From assembly GCA_963775295.1 (NCBI GenBank), contig CAVZIK010000006.1, forward strand, positions 1,813,038 to 1,877,037: a stretch of 64,000 bases of DNA, given 5' to 3'. Position 1 is the first letter of the stretch. Each line of letters starts with the position of its first letter. The DNA comes from an uncultured Actinomycetes bacterium. GTDB taxonomy: Bacteria; Actinomycetota; Thermoleophilia; RBG-16-64-13. This document shows positions 6,353 through 22,542 of the stretch, one piece after another. The notes below the pieces were generated by a model. It searched no databases, was not told where the DNA came from, and worked only from the letters and a program-made list of their open reading frames with translations. Both the position numbers and the translations under genes were made by a program.

Positions 6353-6480
6353 ATGGTAGAAGTCCTTGGCATCTCATGCGTGCGACGCATGAGCAACACC
6401 GAGATCCTTGTCGAAGAGGCGCCGATGGGCGCGTATGGGGGCCGAGGTCGAACTCGTCCGCCTGCACGATCTTCATGCTC
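6353..6480 (+). pseudogene. Frameshifted remnant of a flavodoxin-fold (NADPH-dependent FMN reductase/iron-sulfur flavoprotein) gene
   Basis: After GAGGAG: MVEVLGIS..RRMSNTEILVEEA in one frame continues as MGAEVELVRLHDL in another; together they match the family N-terminus (compare 60064..60642); no CxxCxxC follows. Confidence 0.55.
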
Positions 6481-6592
6481 AAGCCGCCGACCAACACGAG
6501 CGAGTTGCCGACGAAGCTGGAGAAGTGCAAGGGAAATCCGCAATACTCGAAACCCTAGCGTTCCCAGGCGCTCGAGCAGCGAAGGAGAAAGC

Positions 6593-6880
6593 ATGCCGGC
6601 CTATGTGATCGCGAAGATCCGCGTGGATGATGCCGAGACTTACGAAGAGTACCGTCGCATGGTTCCTGCCGTCATAGAAAGTTTCGGCGGCCGCTACCTC
6701 GCTCGCGGCGGGCGCCACGAAACTGTCGAGGGCGACGCATCCCCCGGCCGGGTGGTCGTTCTGGAGTTTCCGAGCTACGAGGACGCCCGGCGCTGGTACG
6801 ACTCGCCCGAATACGGGGTCGCGAAGGAGATCCGCCAGCGCTGCTCGGTGGGCGAAGTCCTGATAGTCGAGGGCGTGTAG
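6593..6880 (+). CDS. DUF1330 family protein
   Basis: AAGGAG RBS; PAYVIAKI...FGGRYLARGG...VVVLEFPS...WYDSPEY. Confidence 0.9.
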   Translation: MPAYVIAKIRVDDAETYEEYRRMVPAVIESFGGRYLARGGRHETVEGDASPGRVVVLEFPSYEDARRWYDSPEYGVAKEIRQRCSVGEVLIVEGV

Positions 6881-16505: not shown

Positions 16506-17024
16506 ATGCATCATCATATGTGGGGAGAATTTGGACATCACGGGCGCGGAGGCCGGCGGGGATTCTTCGAGAGAGGTGGAATCATCCTCGTTATCCTGGA
16601 TCTTTTGAAGGAACAGCCTCGGCACGGATACGACATCATCCGCGAGTTGGAGGAGCGGTCCGGCGGGTTCTACAGTCCGAGCCCAGGAGTCGTCTACCCG
16701 ACGCTCCAGTCGCTGGAAGACAGGGACTTCGTCACCGCCGTGGCAGAACCCGGGGGCAAGAAGATCTATTCCATCACCGATGCCGGTACCGCCTGGTTGG
16801 ACTCTCACAAGGAGGAAGCGACGCGTACCCGCGAGCATATGGCCTCCTTTGGCGGCCGGATGGGCGCCGGTCAGTGGCCGGGCGCGATGGACGACATGAG
16901 GTGGTTCTTCCGCGACGTGGCGCAGGCTATGCGCCGGACCATGAACGATCCCGAGAAGATCCGCGCGATACGCGAGGTCATCGTCGACGCAAAGAAGAGG
17001 ATCGACGACATCGTCGCGGGCTAG
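16506..17024 (+). CDS. PadR family transcriptional regulator
   Basis: LLKEQPRHGYDIIRELEERSGGFYSPSPGVVYPTLQSLED...KKIYSITDAG; GGAGT RBS. Confidence 0.92.
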   Translation: MHHHMWGEFGHHGRGGRRGFFERGGIILVILDLLKEQPRHGYDIIRELEERSGGFYSPSPGVVYPTLQSLEDRDFVTAVAEPGGKKIYSITDAGTAWLDSHKEEATRTREHMASFGGRMGAGQWPGAMDDMRWFFRDVAQAMRRTMNDPEKIRAIREVIVDAKKRIDDIVAG

Positions 17025-17261
17025 GCTCGGCCTCCGCGAGCGCCCGGAGGGACCGATCTCGGGATGACGCCGGAGCCGCGACTTCGCGGCAGTCACCGCC
17101 GCATCCGGCGAGAGCCGCCGTCAGTGTCGACGGTTTGACGTGGAAGAGACTCTTACCGGGCTGGCCGCCGTCGTGGCGGCCAGCCCCACCCTCATTAGAT
17201 TGGCATCACGGCCCTTCTTGACCGCTGCCGGTCCCCGTGCTAAGAATGGTCTGCTTCGATA

Positions 17262-17468
17262 CGGAGCTGGGTGTCGCCGGGTATCCTTGGATGTCCGGCG
17301 GAGAATAGGGAATCGGGTGTGAGTCCCGAACGGTCCCGCCACTGTGAACGGGGAGTGAGCCCGCAGAAAAGCCACTGTGTCACCGCCGTCGCCGGTTTTC
17401 CGGGGAGGTAAGGGGGATGGGAAGGCGCGGGTAAGCCGAGATCCGTCAGTCAGTAGACCTGCCCGGCA
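17262..17468 (+). ncRNA. Cobalamin (AdoCbl) riboswitch
   Basis: AATAGGGAA (17304-12), P4 TCGGGTGTGAGTCCCGA, CCCGCCACTGTG, second GCCACTG, GGGAAGG, B12-box AGTCAGTAGACCTGCC (17448-63); P1 GCTGGGT/GCCCGGC. Confidence 0.92.
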
Positions 17469-17514
17469 TTCTGGTTAGGACCCTCAAGGAAGGGTCACGA
17501 CTGGAGATGATGGC

Positions 17515-17555
17515 AAAGTCTCCGGCCCTCTGGGCTGGGGACTTTCTTGTTTGTT
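17515..17555 (+). terminator. Intrinsic terminator forming the riboswitch expression platform
   Basis: 14-bp stem AAAGTCTCCGGCCC/GGGCTGGGGACTTT (two G-U pairs) followed by CTTGTTTGTT; upstream CTGGAGA can pair with TCTCCGG as an alternative. Confidence 0.75.
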
Positions 17556-17599
17556 GCGCCCCGCCTCGAGATTGTTCTCTTTGTCATAAGGGAGGCGGA

Positions 17600-18466
17600 T
17601 TGCGGACAACTGCCAATGATTCTCTGCCTGCCGAGCGATCGCTCTCGGCTGAACGACGGCTTCAAGGTGAGCCGCAACCCGCGCGTGAGCGTCGGGTCAA
17701 GAAGCGGGAGTTCCCCGCCGCCCTGGTGGGCATTCTGATACTGGTCGCGGCGTGGGAGTTGATCGTGCGAGCGGCCAGGGTCCAGGCGTTCGTGGTTCCT
17801 CCGCCCTCGGCCGTGTTGCGCGAGTTGGTCACGCAACCGGGCGTCTTTGCCACGGCCACCCTCGCGACGTTGGCCGAGGCTGTGGGTGGGTTCTTCCTGG
17901 CTGCCGTCGCGGCTCTGGTCTTTGCCGTGGGAGCTCTCCACTCTCGCCTGTTCGACAGGGTTGTCACGCCGCTCGTGGTCATCAGCCAAACGATTCCGGT
18001 AATCACCCTTGCGCCGCTGCTGATCCTGTGGTTCGGGTACGGGACGCTGCCCCTTGTCGTGGTGTGTGCCTTGGTAGCGTTCTTCCCCATGGCTGTGACC
18101 GGTCTGGAAGGATTCCGCTCAGCCGATCCGGAGCTCGTGTTGTTTCTCCGATCCGTGGATGCCTCGCGTTGGGACGCCTTCTGGAAGGTGAGGCTGCCCC
18201 ATGCCGGGCCGTTTCTTGCGGCCGGCGCGCGAACAAGCGCCACTCTCAGCCTCGTGGGAGCCGTGGTCGCCGACTGGATGGGGTCGGGTCGAGGTCTCGG
18301 CTACATCGTGCTCAGTGCCAATTCGCGGCTCGCGACGGCGCAAGCGTTAGCGGCCGTAGTCGTGATCTGCCTTCTTGGACTCGCTGCTTATGGGTGCGTG
18401 GGTTTTCTCGAAAGGCGGATCGGATGGTGGAACCGTTCCGATCCCAGTATGAAAAGGATGTTCTGA
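17600..18466 (+). CDS. ABC transporter permease, NitT/TauT/SsuC (ThiX-like) family
   Basis: TTG start after AGGGAGG; VPPPSAV, SQTIPVITLAPLLILWFGYG, LSLVGAVVADW...GLGY. Confidence 0.9.
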   Translation: MRTTANDSLPAERSLSAERRLQGEPQPARERRVKKREFPAALVGILILVAAWELIVRAARVQAFVVPPPSAVLRELVTQPGVFATATLATLAEAVGGFFLAAVAALVFAVGALHSRLFDRVVTPLVVISQTIPVITLAPLLILWFGYGTLPLVVVCALVAFFPMAVTGLEGFRSADPELVLFLRSVDASRWDAFWKVRLPHAGPFLAAGARTSATLSLVGAVVADWMGSGRGLGYIVLSANSRLATAQALAAVVVICLLGLAAYGCVGFLERRIGWWNRSDPSMKRMF

Positions 18467-19566
18467 TGAAACAAATAGCGCGCGATTATCGCTGCCCTGC
18501 GACGGTTGCCTTCGCCCTGCTGCTTGCGGCGGGCGTGTTGTTGGGAGGGTGTGGAAGTGTCCAACCCCCAACCACCACCGTCTCTTCGGACGGCGCCTCC
18601 GCCGCGACCGCGAGCACCGCAGCCGAGACCGGGACCACCACCGGCCCCAAGGTTGAGATGCAGCAAGTAGACCTGATGATGGATTGGATTCCCTGGGTCC
18701 TCGACATCCCGGTTGACGTGGCCCAAGTAAAGGGATTCTACGAGCAGCAAGGCCTGAGGGTCCGTCAATCAGTTCCTGCCGAAGCTACGGACGTAGTGAA
18801 GTTCGTGTCCACCGGTAGGAGCCAGTTCGGCCTCTACTACTCCCCCGACATGCTGATGGCTCTGGATGAGGGCGCCCAACTGGTTTCGGTGGGCAGCCTA
18901 ATGTCCCACGCTCCTGTGGGGATGGCTCTCAGGCCGGGTCTCACCGCGGATTCGCCCGCGGCGCTCAAAGACAAGGTGGTCTCGGTGCCGCTCATTCCGT
19001 CCACACGCGCCTCCTTCACCTCGATGCTGGACGCCGCCGGCGTGGATTCAAGGACTGTGAAAGTCGTCGATCCCGGCTTCGAACTGGTGGCACCGCTGCT
19101 GAAGGGGACGGTCGACGCCGCCGCCTTCACCGAGTTCGGGGAGTTGGTCGAGGCTGAGGCTCAGGGGCAGAAGCTTGACTATCTGGACTTCCGCGACTGG
19201 GGCACTCCCGACTACGCTTTTCTGGACGTGATTACGACTCAAGAATTCGCCGCATCCAATCCCGAGACAACCCGTGCATTTCTGCGCGCCACATACGAAG
19301 GGCTGGCCTATGCCGTTGCCAGTCCCGAGGCCGCCGTTGCTCTTTACGTGAAGGCGCACCCGGAACTCGACGAGGGATTGTTGCTTGCCCAATGGAAAGC
19401 CGCCGTCCCTTTTCTCGCCGTTGCCGCCAGCGGCCGTCCCGCCGGCTGGCAGGACAGTGAGGGCTGGGGAAGGCTCAAGGTGTGGATGAAGAGCGCCGGT
19501 TTGCTGAAGACCGAAGTCGATCTTGTCCCGGCCGTGAAGAACGACTATCTCGACCCCGCCAACTAG
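18466..19566 (+). CDS. ABC substrate-binding lipoprotein, NMT1/THI5/SsuA (ThiY-like) family
   Basis: Lipobox LLGGC, Thr/Ala linker, LMMDWIPW, AQVKGFYEQQGLRV, GTPDYAFLDVITT. Confidence 0.88.
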   Translation: MKQIARDYRCPATVAFALLLAAGVLLGGCGSVQPPTTTVSSDGASAATASTAAETGTTTGPKVEMQQVDLMMDWIPWVLDIPVDVAQVKGFYEQQGLRVRQSVPAEATDVVKFVSTGRSQFGLYYSPDMLMALDEGAQLVSVGSLMSHAPVGMALRPGLTADSPAALKDKVVSVPLIPSTRASFTSMLDAAGVDSRTVKVVDPGFELVAPLLKGTVDAAAFTEFGELVEAEAQGQKLDYLDFRDWGTPDYAFLDVITTQEFAASNPETTRAFLRATYEGLAYAVASPEAAVALYVKAHPELDEGLLLAQWKAAVPFLAVAASGRPAGWQDSEGWGRLKVWMKSAGLLKTEVDLVPAVKNDYLDPAN

Positions 19567-19763
19567 AGGGCGGCTGAAAAACGAAACCATGGCTGCCAAG
19601 ACACGCTGGCCGGCACGATGAAGCCTCCTCGGTCGCGCGAATAGCTCTGCCATTTGCCCTCCCTGGGTTCTTTCCCCGTCCGCGGCGGGAGTGCCCTGAC
19701 AGCGCAGAGACATTCTCCACCAGCCTGCCAGACGGGCCGGGCGATCGGACAAGCGCCCGAGGC

Positions 19764-20624
19764 GTGCACTTGCTCGCAACCGATCTCACCCTTGGCTACG
19801 CGAGCGGAGCCGGCGCACGGCTGGAACCTGACTCCCGACCCGTCATCCGGAACGTGAGCCTGACGCTTCGCCCGGGAGAGCGGGTGGCTGTGGTTGGGGC
19901 CAGCGGTAGCGGCAAGACCACTCTGTTGCACGCTTTGGCGGGCTTGTTGCCGCCCGTGGCGGGGCGCGTGATCGTCGACGGGGCCAGCGTGGCTTCACCT
20001 AAGGGTCCCTGCACGTCGCGGCACGCCGCATACATGTTCCAGCGGGACCTGCTTCTCCCGTGGCGGACCGCCCGAGACAACGCCGCTCTGGCGCTTACAG
20101 TCGCGCGGCCCGCACCCGCGGGGCTCAACTCCGCGGCATTGAAGACGCGGGCGCGCGAGCAGGCTGAAGCCCTATTGACGGAGTTCGGCCTGGGGAACGC
20201 TCTTGATGCTTACCCGTACCAGCTTTCGGGCGGCATGCGGCAGCGCGTGGCGCTCGCCCGGACCCTGCTGCTCGAGAGAGGGCTCGTCCTGCTCGATGAA
20301 CCCTTTGCCGGGCTTGACGCCCTGACCCGTGACGACCTGGGGGTATGGATGAGGGGGGTGATGAACACGCACTCCGCGACCTGGGTACTGGTGACCCACG
20401 ATATCCGCGAGGCTGCGTCATTGGCAGATAGGGTGGCGGTGCTGGGTGGAAATCCGGCTGGAGTGGTGGGCTGGGTGGAGACGCGGGATGGCTCTGATAA
20501 GGCCATCGGCGAGCTGCAGCGGCTATTGGCGGAAGCTCGGGCACCAGCGGGGCGCGGCCCGTCCTCGCCAGTCGTTATCATGGGAGGCCATGAAAGTGAC
20601 ACGCCACGATACGACCAGTCTTGA
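19764..20624 (+). CDS. ABC transporter ATP-binding protein, TauB/SsuB (ThiZ-like)
   Basis: GASGSGKTT, FQRDLLLPWRT, LSGGMRQR, LDEPFAGLD, VTHD. Confidence 0.9.
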   Translation: MHLLATDLTLGYASGAGARLEPDSRPVIRNVSLTLRPGERVAVVGASGSGKTTLLHALAGLLPPVAGRVIVDGASVASPKGPCTSRHAAYMFQRDLLLPWRTARDNAALALTVARPAPAGLNSAALKTRAREQAEALLTEFGLGNALDAYPYQLSGGMRQRVALARTLLLERGLVLLDEPFAGLDALTRDDLGVWMRGVMNTHSATWVLVTHDIREAASLADRVAVLGGNPAGVVGWVETRDGSDKAIGELQRLLAEARAPAGRGPSSPVVIMGGHESDTPRYDQS

Positions 20625-22542
20625 ATCCGGAGCCAGTCCCGAGCAAATCCTTTCCAGGGTCTTCGGCTACTCCGAGTTCCGCTGCAATCAGAGGCAGGTC
20701 ATCGACACGGTGCTGGCCGGTGACGACGCTTTCGTTCTCATGCCCAGTGGGGGCGGCAAGTCGCTCTGCTATCAGATTCCGGCCATGCTGCGTCCAGGGA
20801 CGGGCATCGTGGTGTCGCCGCTCATCTCTTTGATGAAGGACCAGGTCGACGCTCTGCGTGCCAACGGCGTTCGAGCGGCGGCCTACAACTCGTCGCTGGA
20901 TGCGGCCACGGCGCGTAAGGTTCTGGCCGACCTTGCGAAAGGACGCCTCGATCTTCTCTACGTCTCGCCGGAGCGAGTGACCAGCGAGGGTTTTCTCAAC
21001 CGGTTGGCAGGTTTGGGCGACGGCGACGGGAGCGGCCCGAGACCGGCGCCGGATGGGGTTGGTCTCGCTCTCATCGCGGTGGACGAAGCCCACTGCATTT
21101 CCCAGTGGGGGCACGACTTCCGGCCCGAGTACGTGGCCCTCGGTATGCTGCGCGGCCGTTTTCCCGGCGTGCCGATCGTGGCCCTCACAGCCACAGCAGA
21201 TCCACATACCCGCGAAGACATTCGCGACAAGCTGGGGCTGCAGCACTCGGCCTGCTTCGTGTCCAGCTTCGATCGGCCAAACATCCGTCTCGAGGTGGTG
21301 GAAAAGCATAATCCTCATATTCAGCTTCAGCGTTTTCTGTCTGGGCACGCGGACGATGCCGGCATCATCTACTGCTCCACCCGCAAGCGCACGGACGATC
21401 TGGCCGCTCATCTGCGAGGGCGGGGTATCGCCGCGGCGGCCTACCACGCGGGGCTGCCGGCGGAGGAGCGGGACCGGGTTCAAGAAGCGTTCATTTTCGA
21501 CGACATCCAGATCGTGGTGGCGACTGTGGCCTTCGGGATGGGTATCGACAAGACCAACGTCCGTTTCGTGGTCCACTGGGACCTGCCACAACATCTCGAA
21601 GGCTACTACCAGGAGATCGGCCGGGCGGGCCGGGACGGGTTGCCGGCGGAGGCGATGCTGCTGTTCGGTTGGGAGGATGTTCCCCGGGTGCGGGCACTCA
21701 TTGAATCGGGGGAAAACGTTGAACGGGTCGCTATCGAGCGGCACAAGTTCGGGGCACTTCTCAGCTTCGTTCAGGCGCTCTCCTGCCGGCGCCGGGCTCT
21801 TCTCGGATACCTGGGTGAGGGCATGGATCGCGATTGTTGTAACTGTGACGTCTGCCTCGAGCCGCCCGAACTGTACGACGCGACCGAAGACGCCCGCATG
21901 GCGCTCTCTTGCGTCTACCGGGTGCGAGAGCGCTTCGGGGTGGGGCACGTGGTTGACGTGCTTCGCGGATCGAAGAACCAGCGCGTCATCGACCTCCGAC
22001 ACGACCATCTCTCCACCTACGGGATCGGAGCGCATCTCAGCGGGGAAGCTTGGCGAAGCTTGCTGCGGCAACTGGTCCATCTGGGGTACCTCCGCCAGGA
22101 CATAGGCGAGTATCCGGTGCTCACGCTTGCTTCGGCCGCGGCTCCACTGCTGCGTGGGGAGGAGTCGCTCATGCTGGCCAAGCCTCGGGTTAGAGTCATC
22201 CCGGCGAAAGAGCCAAAAACCAAGCGGGGGCGGAGCGCCCGACTTGATAGCATCCTCGGCGGGGAACCGCGAAGCGGACCGTCGGACTCCGGCGGCGTCG
22301 AAGACGCCGTTGAGATCCTTTTCGAAGAACTGCGCACGCTCAGACGGCAGATCGCCGACCGGGAGCGTGTGCCGGCCTACGTCATCTTCCACGACTCCAC
22401 TCTGCGGGAGATGGCGGTATTGCGCCCCCTGGATGCCGACGGGCTGCTCGAGGTCGGCGGGGTGGGCGTCAAGAAATTGGAAAAATATGGGGAAGAGTTT
22501 CTCGCACTGCTGCGCGGCAGTCCGCCCGTCGACTTGGAGTAG
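20590..22542 (+). CDS. recQ: ATP-dependent DNA helicase RecQ
   Basis: MPSGGGKSLCYQIP, VDEAHCISQWGHDFRPEY, ATVAFGMGIDK, YYQEIGRAGRDG, Zn-binding CRRR..CCNCDVC, RQC, HRDC (PAYVIFHDSTL). Confidence 0.95.
   Translation: MKVTRHDTTSLESGASPEQILSRVFGYSEFRCNQRQVIDTVLAGDDAFVLMPSGGGKSLCYQIPAMLRPGTGIVVSPLISLMKDQVDALRANGVRAAAYNSSLDAATARKVLADLAKGRLDLLYVSPERVTSEGFLNRLAGLGDGDGSGPRPAPDGVGLALIAVDEAHCISQWGHDFRPEYVALGMLRGRFPGVPIVALTATADPHTREDIRDKLGLQHSACFVSSFDRPNIRLEVVEKHNPHIQLQRFLSGHADDAGIIYCSTRKRTDDLAAHLRGRGIAAAAYHAGLPAEERDRVQEAFIFDDIQIVVATVAFGMGIDKTNVRFVVHWDLPQHLEGYYQEIGRAGRDGLPAEAMLLFGWEDVPRVRALIESGENVERVAIERHKFGALLSFVQALSCRRRALLGYLGEGMDRDCCNCDVCLEPPELYDATEDARMALSCVYRVRERFGVGHVVDVLRGSKNQRVIDLRHDHLSTYGIGAHLSGEAWRSLLRQLVHLGYLRQDIGEYPVLTLASAAAPLLRGEESLMLAKPRVRVIPAKEPKTKRGRSARLDSILGGEPRSGPSDSGGVEDAVEILFEELRTLRRQIADRERVPAYVIFHDSTLREMAVLRPLDADGLLEVGGVGVKKLEKYGEEFLALLRGSPPVDLE

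Follow-up and report, generated by a model that had tools for sequence, protein, structure and literature searches.

What does a bacterium import through a transporter that resembles the importers of thiamin precursors, but is placed under the control of a vitamin B12 riboswitch? The question is raised by a three-gene operon in a 64-kb stretch of DNA (hereafter the window) from an uncultured actinobacterium of the Thermoleophilia lineage (contig CAVZIK010000006.1, positions 1,813,038 to 1,877,037). The operon encodes the permease, substrate-binding lipoprotein (SBP), and ATPase of an ATP-binding cassette (ABC) importer. We propose, with a probability of about 60%, that it is a B12-repressed ABC importer of NitT/TauT architecture and that its substrate is a free cobamide lower-ligand base. 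This proposal is based on the genomic associations of the operon, which also indicate that the base is probably a benzimidazole such as 5-hydroxybenzimidazole, 5-methoxybenzimidazole, or 5,6-dimethylbenzimidazole (DMB). The system is thus predicted to be a ThiXYZ-type importer re-purposed for lower-ligand bases. Cobamide biology has a gap where the acquisition of free lower-ligand bases by bacteria is concerned. Members of microbial communities exchange DMB and other benzimidazoles, and these bases determine the kind of cobamide that an organism makes.

The operon and its leader contain the following features, numbered by their position in the window:

17218..17247, + strand: candidate sigma-70-like promoter, TTGACC and AAGAAT separated by 18 nt (consensus match only, at 9 of 12 positions)
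17252..17480, + strand: cobalamin riboswitch aptamer, RF00174 (cmscan, 107.3 bits, E 6.8e-26)
17371-17377, + strand: B12 box GCCACTG inside the aptamer
17515..17555, + strand: intrinsic terminator of the expression platform, hairpin 17515-17545 (14-bp stem, loop TCT) and tail CTTGTTTGTT
17590..17599, + strand: ribosome-binding site GGGAGGCGGA
17600..18466, + strand: ABC permease, TauC/SsuC/SaoP-like, BPD_transp_1 (PF00528, 2e-29), probable TTG start
18466..19566, + strand: SBP of the NMT1/THI5 fold, 366 residues (PF09084 NMT1, 8.9e-48)
19764..20624, + strand: ABC ATPase, TauB/NtrCD-like (PF00005, 8e-34), start at GTG 19764 or TTG 19770

An SBP of the NMT1/SsuA fold, a BPD_transp_1 permease, and an ABC ATPase encoded in one operon make up an importer of the NitT/TauT type. 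The permease likely starts at TTG 17600, because the pairing of the ribosome-binding site GGGAGGCGGA with a TTG codon is conserved in the closest relatives, loci L001 and L002. A long open reading frame starting inside the terminator (MMAKSPAL...) was rejected as an artefact. The best NCBIfam matches of the permease are SaoP, TauC, and SsuC, and it shares 57-76% identity with the permeases of all the related loci described below. The ATG codon of the SBP gene at 18466 overlaps the permease stop codon (TGATG). The SBP consists of a signal peptide, the lipobox LLGGC, a Thr/Ser/Ala-rich linker, and a mature domain from approximately residue 62. The ATPase, whose best NCBIfam matches are ntrCD/TauB-like, has intact Walker A (GASGSGKTT), signature (LSGGMRQR), and Walker B (LLLDEPF) motifs. 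Domain searches of the three transporter proteins found neither BtuF (PF01497) nor FecCD domains. 

The aptamer exceeds the RF00174 gathering score of 31.5 bits, spans model positions 1-189 of 189, which corresponds to the full length, and includes the B12 box. RF00174 is the sole Rfam family matched in the whole window. The candidate promoter ends 5 nt before the aptamer. The 14-bp terminator hairpin is rich in G+C, has a folding energy of approximately -24.6 kcal/mol, and is directly followed at its 3' side by the U-tract CTTGTTTGTT, so that the expression platform is able to gate the downstream gene. Folding of the leader indicates that the 3' strand of P1 can pair with CUGGAGAUG, and that CUGGAGAUG can pair with the 5' arm of the terminator. 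Because leader thermodynamics do not decide the switching logic, we infer the direction of the switch, OFF in the presence of adenosylcobalamin (AdoCbl), by analogy: other cobalamin riboswitches, and the known bza operons that are headed by a riboswitch, serve as the models. An earlier interpretation of the same DNA, the sequence-only reading, had described a cobalamin riboswitch and terminator directly upstream of a permease, an NMT1/THI5-like binding lipoprotein, and a TauB-like ATPase, with no BtuF/BtuCD-type features. This description is borne out, including the Rfam class, for which a cmscan check had been suggested. The limits it gave, 17262-20624, are correct at the end, which is the stop codon of the ATPase, whereas the start lies 10 nt inside the aptamer.

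The control by cobalamin is not peculiar to the window. We scanned genomes, one per species (species representatives), and found 25 homologous loci; metagenomes provided 37 additional loci, 23 of which had enough upstream sequence for a riboswitch to be assessed with an nhmmer profile built from the genome-locus riboswitches. A cobalamin riboswitch precedes the operon at the corresponding position and on the same strand in all 25 genome loci, according to Rfam, and the riboswitch element is present in 21 of the 23 assessable metagenome loci. Rfam searches of the window and the 25 genome loci detected no thiamin pyrophosphate (TPP) riboswitch (RF00059). Cobalamin riboswitch control is a property of the family. 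The terminator hairpin and U-tract occur in every related leader in two sequence designs, and the leader of the window has the design of the bza-linked loci described below. The segment GGAGAUGAUGGCAAAGUCUCC, located just before and overlapping the 5' arm of the terminator (window 17495-17545), is conserved, including its loop, and is also found in the leaders of L001-L004, L009, L015, L018, L019, L022, and L025. It gives rise to the spurious open reading frame 'MMAKSPAL', can form a 7-bp hairpin competing with the terminator, and may act as the kissing-loop, or regulatory, helix of the expression platform. The second group of loci has a terminator sequence unrelated to that of the GGAGAUGAUGGCAAAGUCUCC type.

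The two loci without the riboswitch element, L036 and L037, are near-identical metagenome contigs. Their homology to the intact locus L033 starts approximately 215 nt inside the permease gene (L036:5900-6260, L037:500-900), and the riboswitch and the 5' end of the permease gene are replaced by unrelated sequence. They look like a rearranged or decaying copy. The SBP family is almost confined to uncultured Thermoleophilia-like Actinomycetota. The only locus with a different label, L021, is located terminally on a 1.72-Mb contig assigned to Candidatus Eisenbacteria and has the same riboswitch-transporter arrangement; it could result from horizontal transfer or from mis-assembly of the contig end.

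The genes that accompany the transporter in its relatives provide the main evidence for the nature of the substrate. Representative neighbourhoods were annotated with NCBIfam and Pfam, and the annotations were mapped to the other loci by tblastn. CobT (TIGR03160, 451 bits) is encoded within the 8-kb flanks of the transporter in 18 of the 25 genome loci, and several of the loci without it lie on truncated contigs. Contigs of the same size shared by SBP and CobT matches, such as those of 247251, 57973, 33847, and 17292 nt, indicate further co-localisations. In six loci (L009, L015, L025, L018, L047, and the truncated L003), the transporter is internal to a bza-type operon with the order riboswitch, ThiC-like bzaF, permease, SBP, ATPase, cobT, bzaC-like gene, BzaD-like gene, and a gene for a second B12-binding radical S-adenosylmethionine (SAM) protein (bzaE). 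The junctions in these operons are 6 nt, 47 nt, or 4-nt overlaps, and there is no internal riboswitch. The bzaC-like methyltransferase has the domains Dimerisation, Methyltransf_2, and DUF2284, and the BzaD-like protein matches TIGR04385 with 380 bits. The ThiC-like protein scores 581 bits with the ThiC model and 531 bits with the BzaB exception model, the cut-off of which is 700. A PDB search with it returned ThiC entries only and no BzaF structure; therefore, its identity as BzaF rests on the gene context and the near-threshold BzaB model. By its gene content, the set of ThiC-like, cobT, bzaC-like, BzaD-like, and B12-binding radical-SAM genes under a cobalamin riboswitch is a bza operon.

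Another six loci (L004, L019, L028, L042, L045, and L046) contain a version of this operon without bzaF, in which the transporter genes directly follow the riboswitch. In at least 17 loci (L005-L008, L011, L012, L014, L016, L017, L020, L023, L024, L030, L033, L034, L036, and L056), the ATPase gene is followed by a second riboswitch, or directly by cobU, at the head of a cobU-cobT-cobS-cobC-cbiB cluster. No second riboswitch was detected in the approximately 400-nt gap between the ATPase gene and cobU in L005 (9800-10244) and L034 (8430-8915), where the single riboswitch may control all eight genes, those of the transporter and cobU-cobT-cobS-cobC-cbiB. L001 contains a divergent pair of cobalamin riboswitches (6362-6859) with a spacing of 130 nt. 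The leftward one drives btuF-btuC-btuD, the rightward one drives the NMT1-type transporter, and cobT-cobC-cobU-cobS are located beyond btuD. A divergent riboswitch-btuF is also present in L002 and L022. The proximity of the transporter to lower-ligand genes is thus kept across at least four architectures, a pattern that favours functional coupling over synteny by descent alone. The survey of homologs for linkage to cobT, cobS, and bza genes that the sequence-only reading had called for is therefore strongly positive, since most loci have bza/cobT operons or an adjoining riboswitch-cobUTSC cluster.

The CobT encoded in the bza operons (L004:9786-10910) and that of the cobU-cobT-cobS-cobC clusters (L006:11013-12098) are of two types with approximately 50-54% identity. 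The nearest relatives of the bza-type CobT outside the group, with approximately 60% identity, belong to Bacillota, Desulfobacterota, and Chloroflexota. The divergence of the bza-type CobT and the placement of its nearest outside relatives in other phyla hint that the bza module was acquired horizontally.

What kind of molecule can the SBP bind? An AlphaFold2 model of the SBP, built on an alignment of 25 sequences, reaches a pLDDT of 86.8 over the full chain, with values above 90 across most of the mature domain. A Foldseek search of the PDB with this model placed two proteins at the top, a C. difficile SBP with bound thiamin (4nmy) and ThiY in complex with formylaminopyrimidine (FAMP; 3ix1), with E-values of approximately 1e-26, TM-scores of approximately 0.84 on the target, and 25-26% sequence identity. 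The hydroxymethylpyrimidine (HMP) phosphate synthase Thi5 came next, and TauA, SsuA, and PqqT scored much lower. Because 4nmy and 3ix1 lead this ranking, with TauA and SsuA far below them, the SBP as modelled is in the branch of the fold that binds vitamin-type N-heterocycles.

This position raises the possibility that the operon encodes a genuine ThiXYZ importer of HMP or FAMP, which is only incidentally under B12 control. The system indeed shares with ThiXYZ the three-component architecture, the NMT1/THI5 fold of the SBP, and the principle that the salvage of a vitamin precursor is switched by a riboswitch for the finished cofactor. The best PDB match of the SBP in a sequence search is also ThiY (3ix1, 7e-30), the JGI annotation of many members is 'putative hydroxymethylpyrimidine transport system substrate-binding protein', and the linked bzaF scores above the NCBIfam ThiC cut-off. 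However, the ThiC-like gene is followed by the remaining genes of a bza operon, and the neighbours of the transporter are cobT, bza, and cobUSC genes instead of the thiD and tenA genes that accompany ThiXYZ; neither tenA nor thiD was found at the loci. The TPP riboswitch of ThiXYZ is replaced by a cobalamin riboswitch. The SBP family is not orthologous to ThiY: in a maximum-likelihood tree, it is monophyletic (100/99) and separated from ThiY and 4nmy by a very long branch. Among 1.84 billion representatives at 50% identity, there is one full-length representative of the family (425 bits), and the next full-length proteins reach at most 151 bits with 30-35% identity. No cobalamin riboswitch was found at the nearest outgroup loci examined. 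In one of them, L067, with 32% identity, the same Rfam scan did detect a TPP riboswitch (70.5 bits), ahead of genes for ATPase, permease, SBP, and ThiD/ThiN; this is a real ThiXYZ-type system. Outgroup loci L065 and L066 are located among Rieske dioxygenase genes, and L064 is beside ECH and 3HCDH genes.

The thiamin-linked signature is not shared either. The motif DWxPNxxH and Ser124 are common to 3ix1, 4nmy, and the TPP-controlled protein P0373, whereas the cobalamin-linked family has an invariant DW(I/V)PWVLD (N77W, H80D) and Tyr124 (S124Y). Glu181 of ThiY and 4nmy is replaced by Arg181. Additional invariant aromatic or acidic residues of the family are F224, D241, F242, W245, F252, and W310; these and the signature residues are assumed to line the ligand cleft. 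Taken with the neighbourhoods, these differences make a thiamin-precursor importer barely credible.

The transporter could also serve an unrelated nutrient, for example a methionine-related or organosulfur compound, the demand for which rises when B12 is scarce, by analogy with the metE and nrd isoenzymes, which are controlled by B12 riboswitches. The best NCBIfam matches of the permease and ATPase are taurine and sulfonate transporters, and the operon of the window stands alone, away from cob genes. However, the SBP reaches only 35 bits with the NCBIfam SsuA and TauA models, the cut-offs of which are 163-490 bits, and an unrelated nutrient leaves the repeated linkage to lower-ligand genes, which does not depend on the architecture, unexplained. 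We consider such a substrate very improbable.

If the substrate is related to cobamides, it could be a building block other than the lower ligand: aminopropanol or ethanolamine phosphate, a purine or AIR-riboside precursor (AIR, 5-aminoimidazole ribotide), cobalt, or a corrinoid fragment. B12 riboswitches do control cobalt importers such as CbtJKL of Sinorhizobium meliloti (PMC7689651), cobU and cbiB, whose products act on the aminopropanol arm, are neighbours of the transporter in many loci, and the TauA relatives of the SBP fold bind aminoethyl-phosphonate. Nevertheless, the genes most tightly linked to the transporter, by sharing an operon with it, are bzaF, cobT, and bzaC rather than cbiB or chelatase genes, and TauA is a much more distant relative of the SBP than ThiY and 4nmy are. 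As a whole, this group of substrates appears fairly unlikely. A cobalt importer was rejected specifically: CbtJKL resembles the system described here in that it is an ABC importer, is controlled by an AdoCbl riboswitch, and provides a building block of B12 (PMC7689651). However, CbtJ is BtuF-like and not of the NMT1 type, CbtJKL transports Co(II), and its genes are not linked to cobT or bza, whereas the linkage here is to lower-ligand genes.

A corrinoid importer was also rejected. BtuFCD is likewise an ABC importer under a cobalamin riboswitch and is the divergent neighbour of the NMT1-type transporter in L001. However, BtuF belongs to PF01497 and BtuC is a type II importer permease of the FecCD family, and the transporter of the window has neither a BtuF-type SBP nor a FecCD-type permease. 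The two systems co-occur, which indicates that they are not redundant, and the separate riboswitch-controlled btuF(CD) genes in L001, L002, and L022 argue that the transporter is not a corrinoid importer. A type I permease and an NMT1 pocket would also probably be too small for corrinoids.

Is the lower ligand then imported as a free base or as its riboside? The only uptake route for a lower-ligand moiety given in reviews is that of cblT/cblS (PMC8123684; PMC6461909). CblT, which acts together with the kinase CblS, takes up a lower-ligand moiety under cobalamin riboswitches in Firmicutes (PMC6461909, PMC9600662, PMC8123684). The transporter could be a functional analogue of this energy-coupling factor (ECF) component and import alpha-ribazole. 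The salvage of alpha-ribazole is a known route (PMC6461909), and the closest structure, 4nmy, holds a whole thiamin, so that the fold takes ligands larger than a bare base. CblT differs from the system described here in being a single ECF S-component membrane protein without a binding protein, which takes the riboside and needs CblS. The system described here is a binding-protein-dependent ABC importer of SBP, permease, and ATPase, and its linkage to CobT implies that a free base is taken up. Salvaged alpha-ribazole requires the CblS kinase, whereas the gene linked in 18 of the 25 loci encodes CobT, which acts on free bases; no scan was aimed at CblS. The location of the transporter between bzaF and cobT, or at the head of cobT-bzaC, also fits a substrate of CobT. 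Because CobT rather than a CblS kinase is the linked partner, and because the transporter sits where the BzaF product enters the pathway, the free base is favoured, and alpha-ribazole seems quite unlikely. The salvage of a lower ligand, which the sequence-only reading had proposed with benzimidazoles, alpha-ribazole, and purine-type ligands as candidates, is thus supported, entirely by comparative genomics, and narrowed towards free bases.

Based on the leader of the window and the gene content of the related loci, the following mechanism of lower-ligand salvage can be proposed. When AdoCbl is scarce, the aptamer would be empty, and RNA polymerase would pass the leader terminator. Read-through would allow the three components to be made: the permease, the ATPase, and the lipoprotein, which would be anchored in the membrane and capture the base outside the cell. 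ATP hydrolysis would then drive import of the base. CobT, linked to the transporter in the relatives, would then use nicotinate mononucleotide (NaMN) to convert the base to alpha-ribazole phosphate; in the window organism, the coupling to CobT is presumed from these relatives. In relatives with bzaC, bzaD, and bzaE, the base may be methylated towards DMB. CobS would join the lower-ligand moiety to adenosylcobinamide-GDP (AdoCbi-GDP), and CobS and CobC would complete the nucleotide loop. When AdoCbl is plentiful, the liganded aptamer would allow the 14-bp terminator to form, and transcription would end before the permease gene.

Several observations weigh against the import of a free lower-ligand base. 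The window contains no cob, bza, or btu genes over its 64 kb, and the operon stands alone between the genes of a PadR regulator and RecQ. Searches with the two CobT types gave no match on the 3,560,348-nt contig of the window among the best 120 matches listed per search, lists that cover only identities of at least 73% and at least 56% and thus do not show that CobT is absent. No structure with a bound ligand exceeds 25-26% identity to the SBP, whose sequence alone does not reveal the ligand. The alternative pairings of the leader alone do not prove an OFF switch. In genomes with a bzaF-less operon, bzaF could be located elsewhere. All members of the family come from uncultured metagenome-assembled genomes. 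Finally, benzimidazoles are generally assumed to cross membranes unaided, and the need for an importer is not obvious.

The genes flanking the operon in the window are:

16506-17024: PadR regulator, upstream of the operon
20578-22542: RecQ, downstream of the operon

A major facilitator superfamily (MFS) transporter is also encoded downstream. A tblastn search of the window with CobT, CobS, CobU, CobC, CbiB, BzaF, BzaC, BzaD, BzaE, and BtuFCD gave generic ABC-ATPase matches only. The non-coding gap between the SBP stop codon and the ATPase start (19567-19763, 197 nt) is longer than in most relatives and contains neither an Rfam match nor a convincing open reading frame.

Two further observations concern the neighbourhoods of the relatives. 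In L002 (3074-6555) and L022 (2612-6197), purM-purN-purH are located directly upstream of the transporter riboswitch. The product of PurM is AIR, the substrate of BzaF; this placement is probably coincidental housekeeping synteny. Approximately nine loci (L007:9965-12412, L010, L020, L024, L030, L048, L050, L056, and L062) encode a secreted protein of 815-917 residues between the ATPase gene and the second riboswitch. It contains a clostripain-like peptidase C11 domain and a Ycf48/BNR beta-propeller. Because of the position of its gene, the protein is probably co-transcribed with the transporter. A possible role would be the release of corrinoids or bases that are bound to extracellular material.

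The comparison with published bza operons, which encode the anaerobic benzimidazole pathway (bzaF or bzaAB, cobT, bzaC, bzaD, and bzaE), indicates how a free-base importer might be integrated into cobamide biosynthesis. The transporter is internal to such operons in six loci and takes the place of bzaF in six more, whereas the published operons list no transporter (PMC8123684), and the copy in the window is detached from bza genes. In the tree of the SBP, bzaF-containing and bzaF-less operons interleave within the same subclades, a pattern suggesting that 5-hydroxybenzimidazole can be obtained by import instead of from BzaF. A full-text literature search found no description of an NMT1-type or any other ABC importer for lower ligands; the sequence-only reading had called dedicated importers of this kind poorly defined. 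We tentatively put forward, as possible rather than probable, that the transporter is the first dedicated high-affinity importer of free benzimidazole bases and that it can take over from BzaF, a radical-SAM enzyme, at the start of the anaerobic DMB pathway. Carriers without bzaF would import 5-hydroxybenzimidazole made by their neighbours and finish it to DMB. The importer would have evolved from a ThiXYZ-like ancestor, in parallel with the origin of BzaF from ThiC.

If free lower-ligand bases are indeed the substrate, the dependence of the importer on a binding protein would imply that they are scavenged at very low concentrations. The family would be a genomic marker for lower-ligand salvagers among the Actinomycetota of soil, sediment, and peat, and the widespread mis-annotation of its members as 'HMP transporters' would be corrected. 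The SBP would be a natural benzimidazole-binding protein that could be used as a sensor. The transporter operons without bzaF make cross-feeding of 5-hydroxybenzimidazole directly testable, and they would represent a 'salvage-and-finish' division of labour between the carriers of the transporter and neighbours that make 5-hydroxybenzimidazole.

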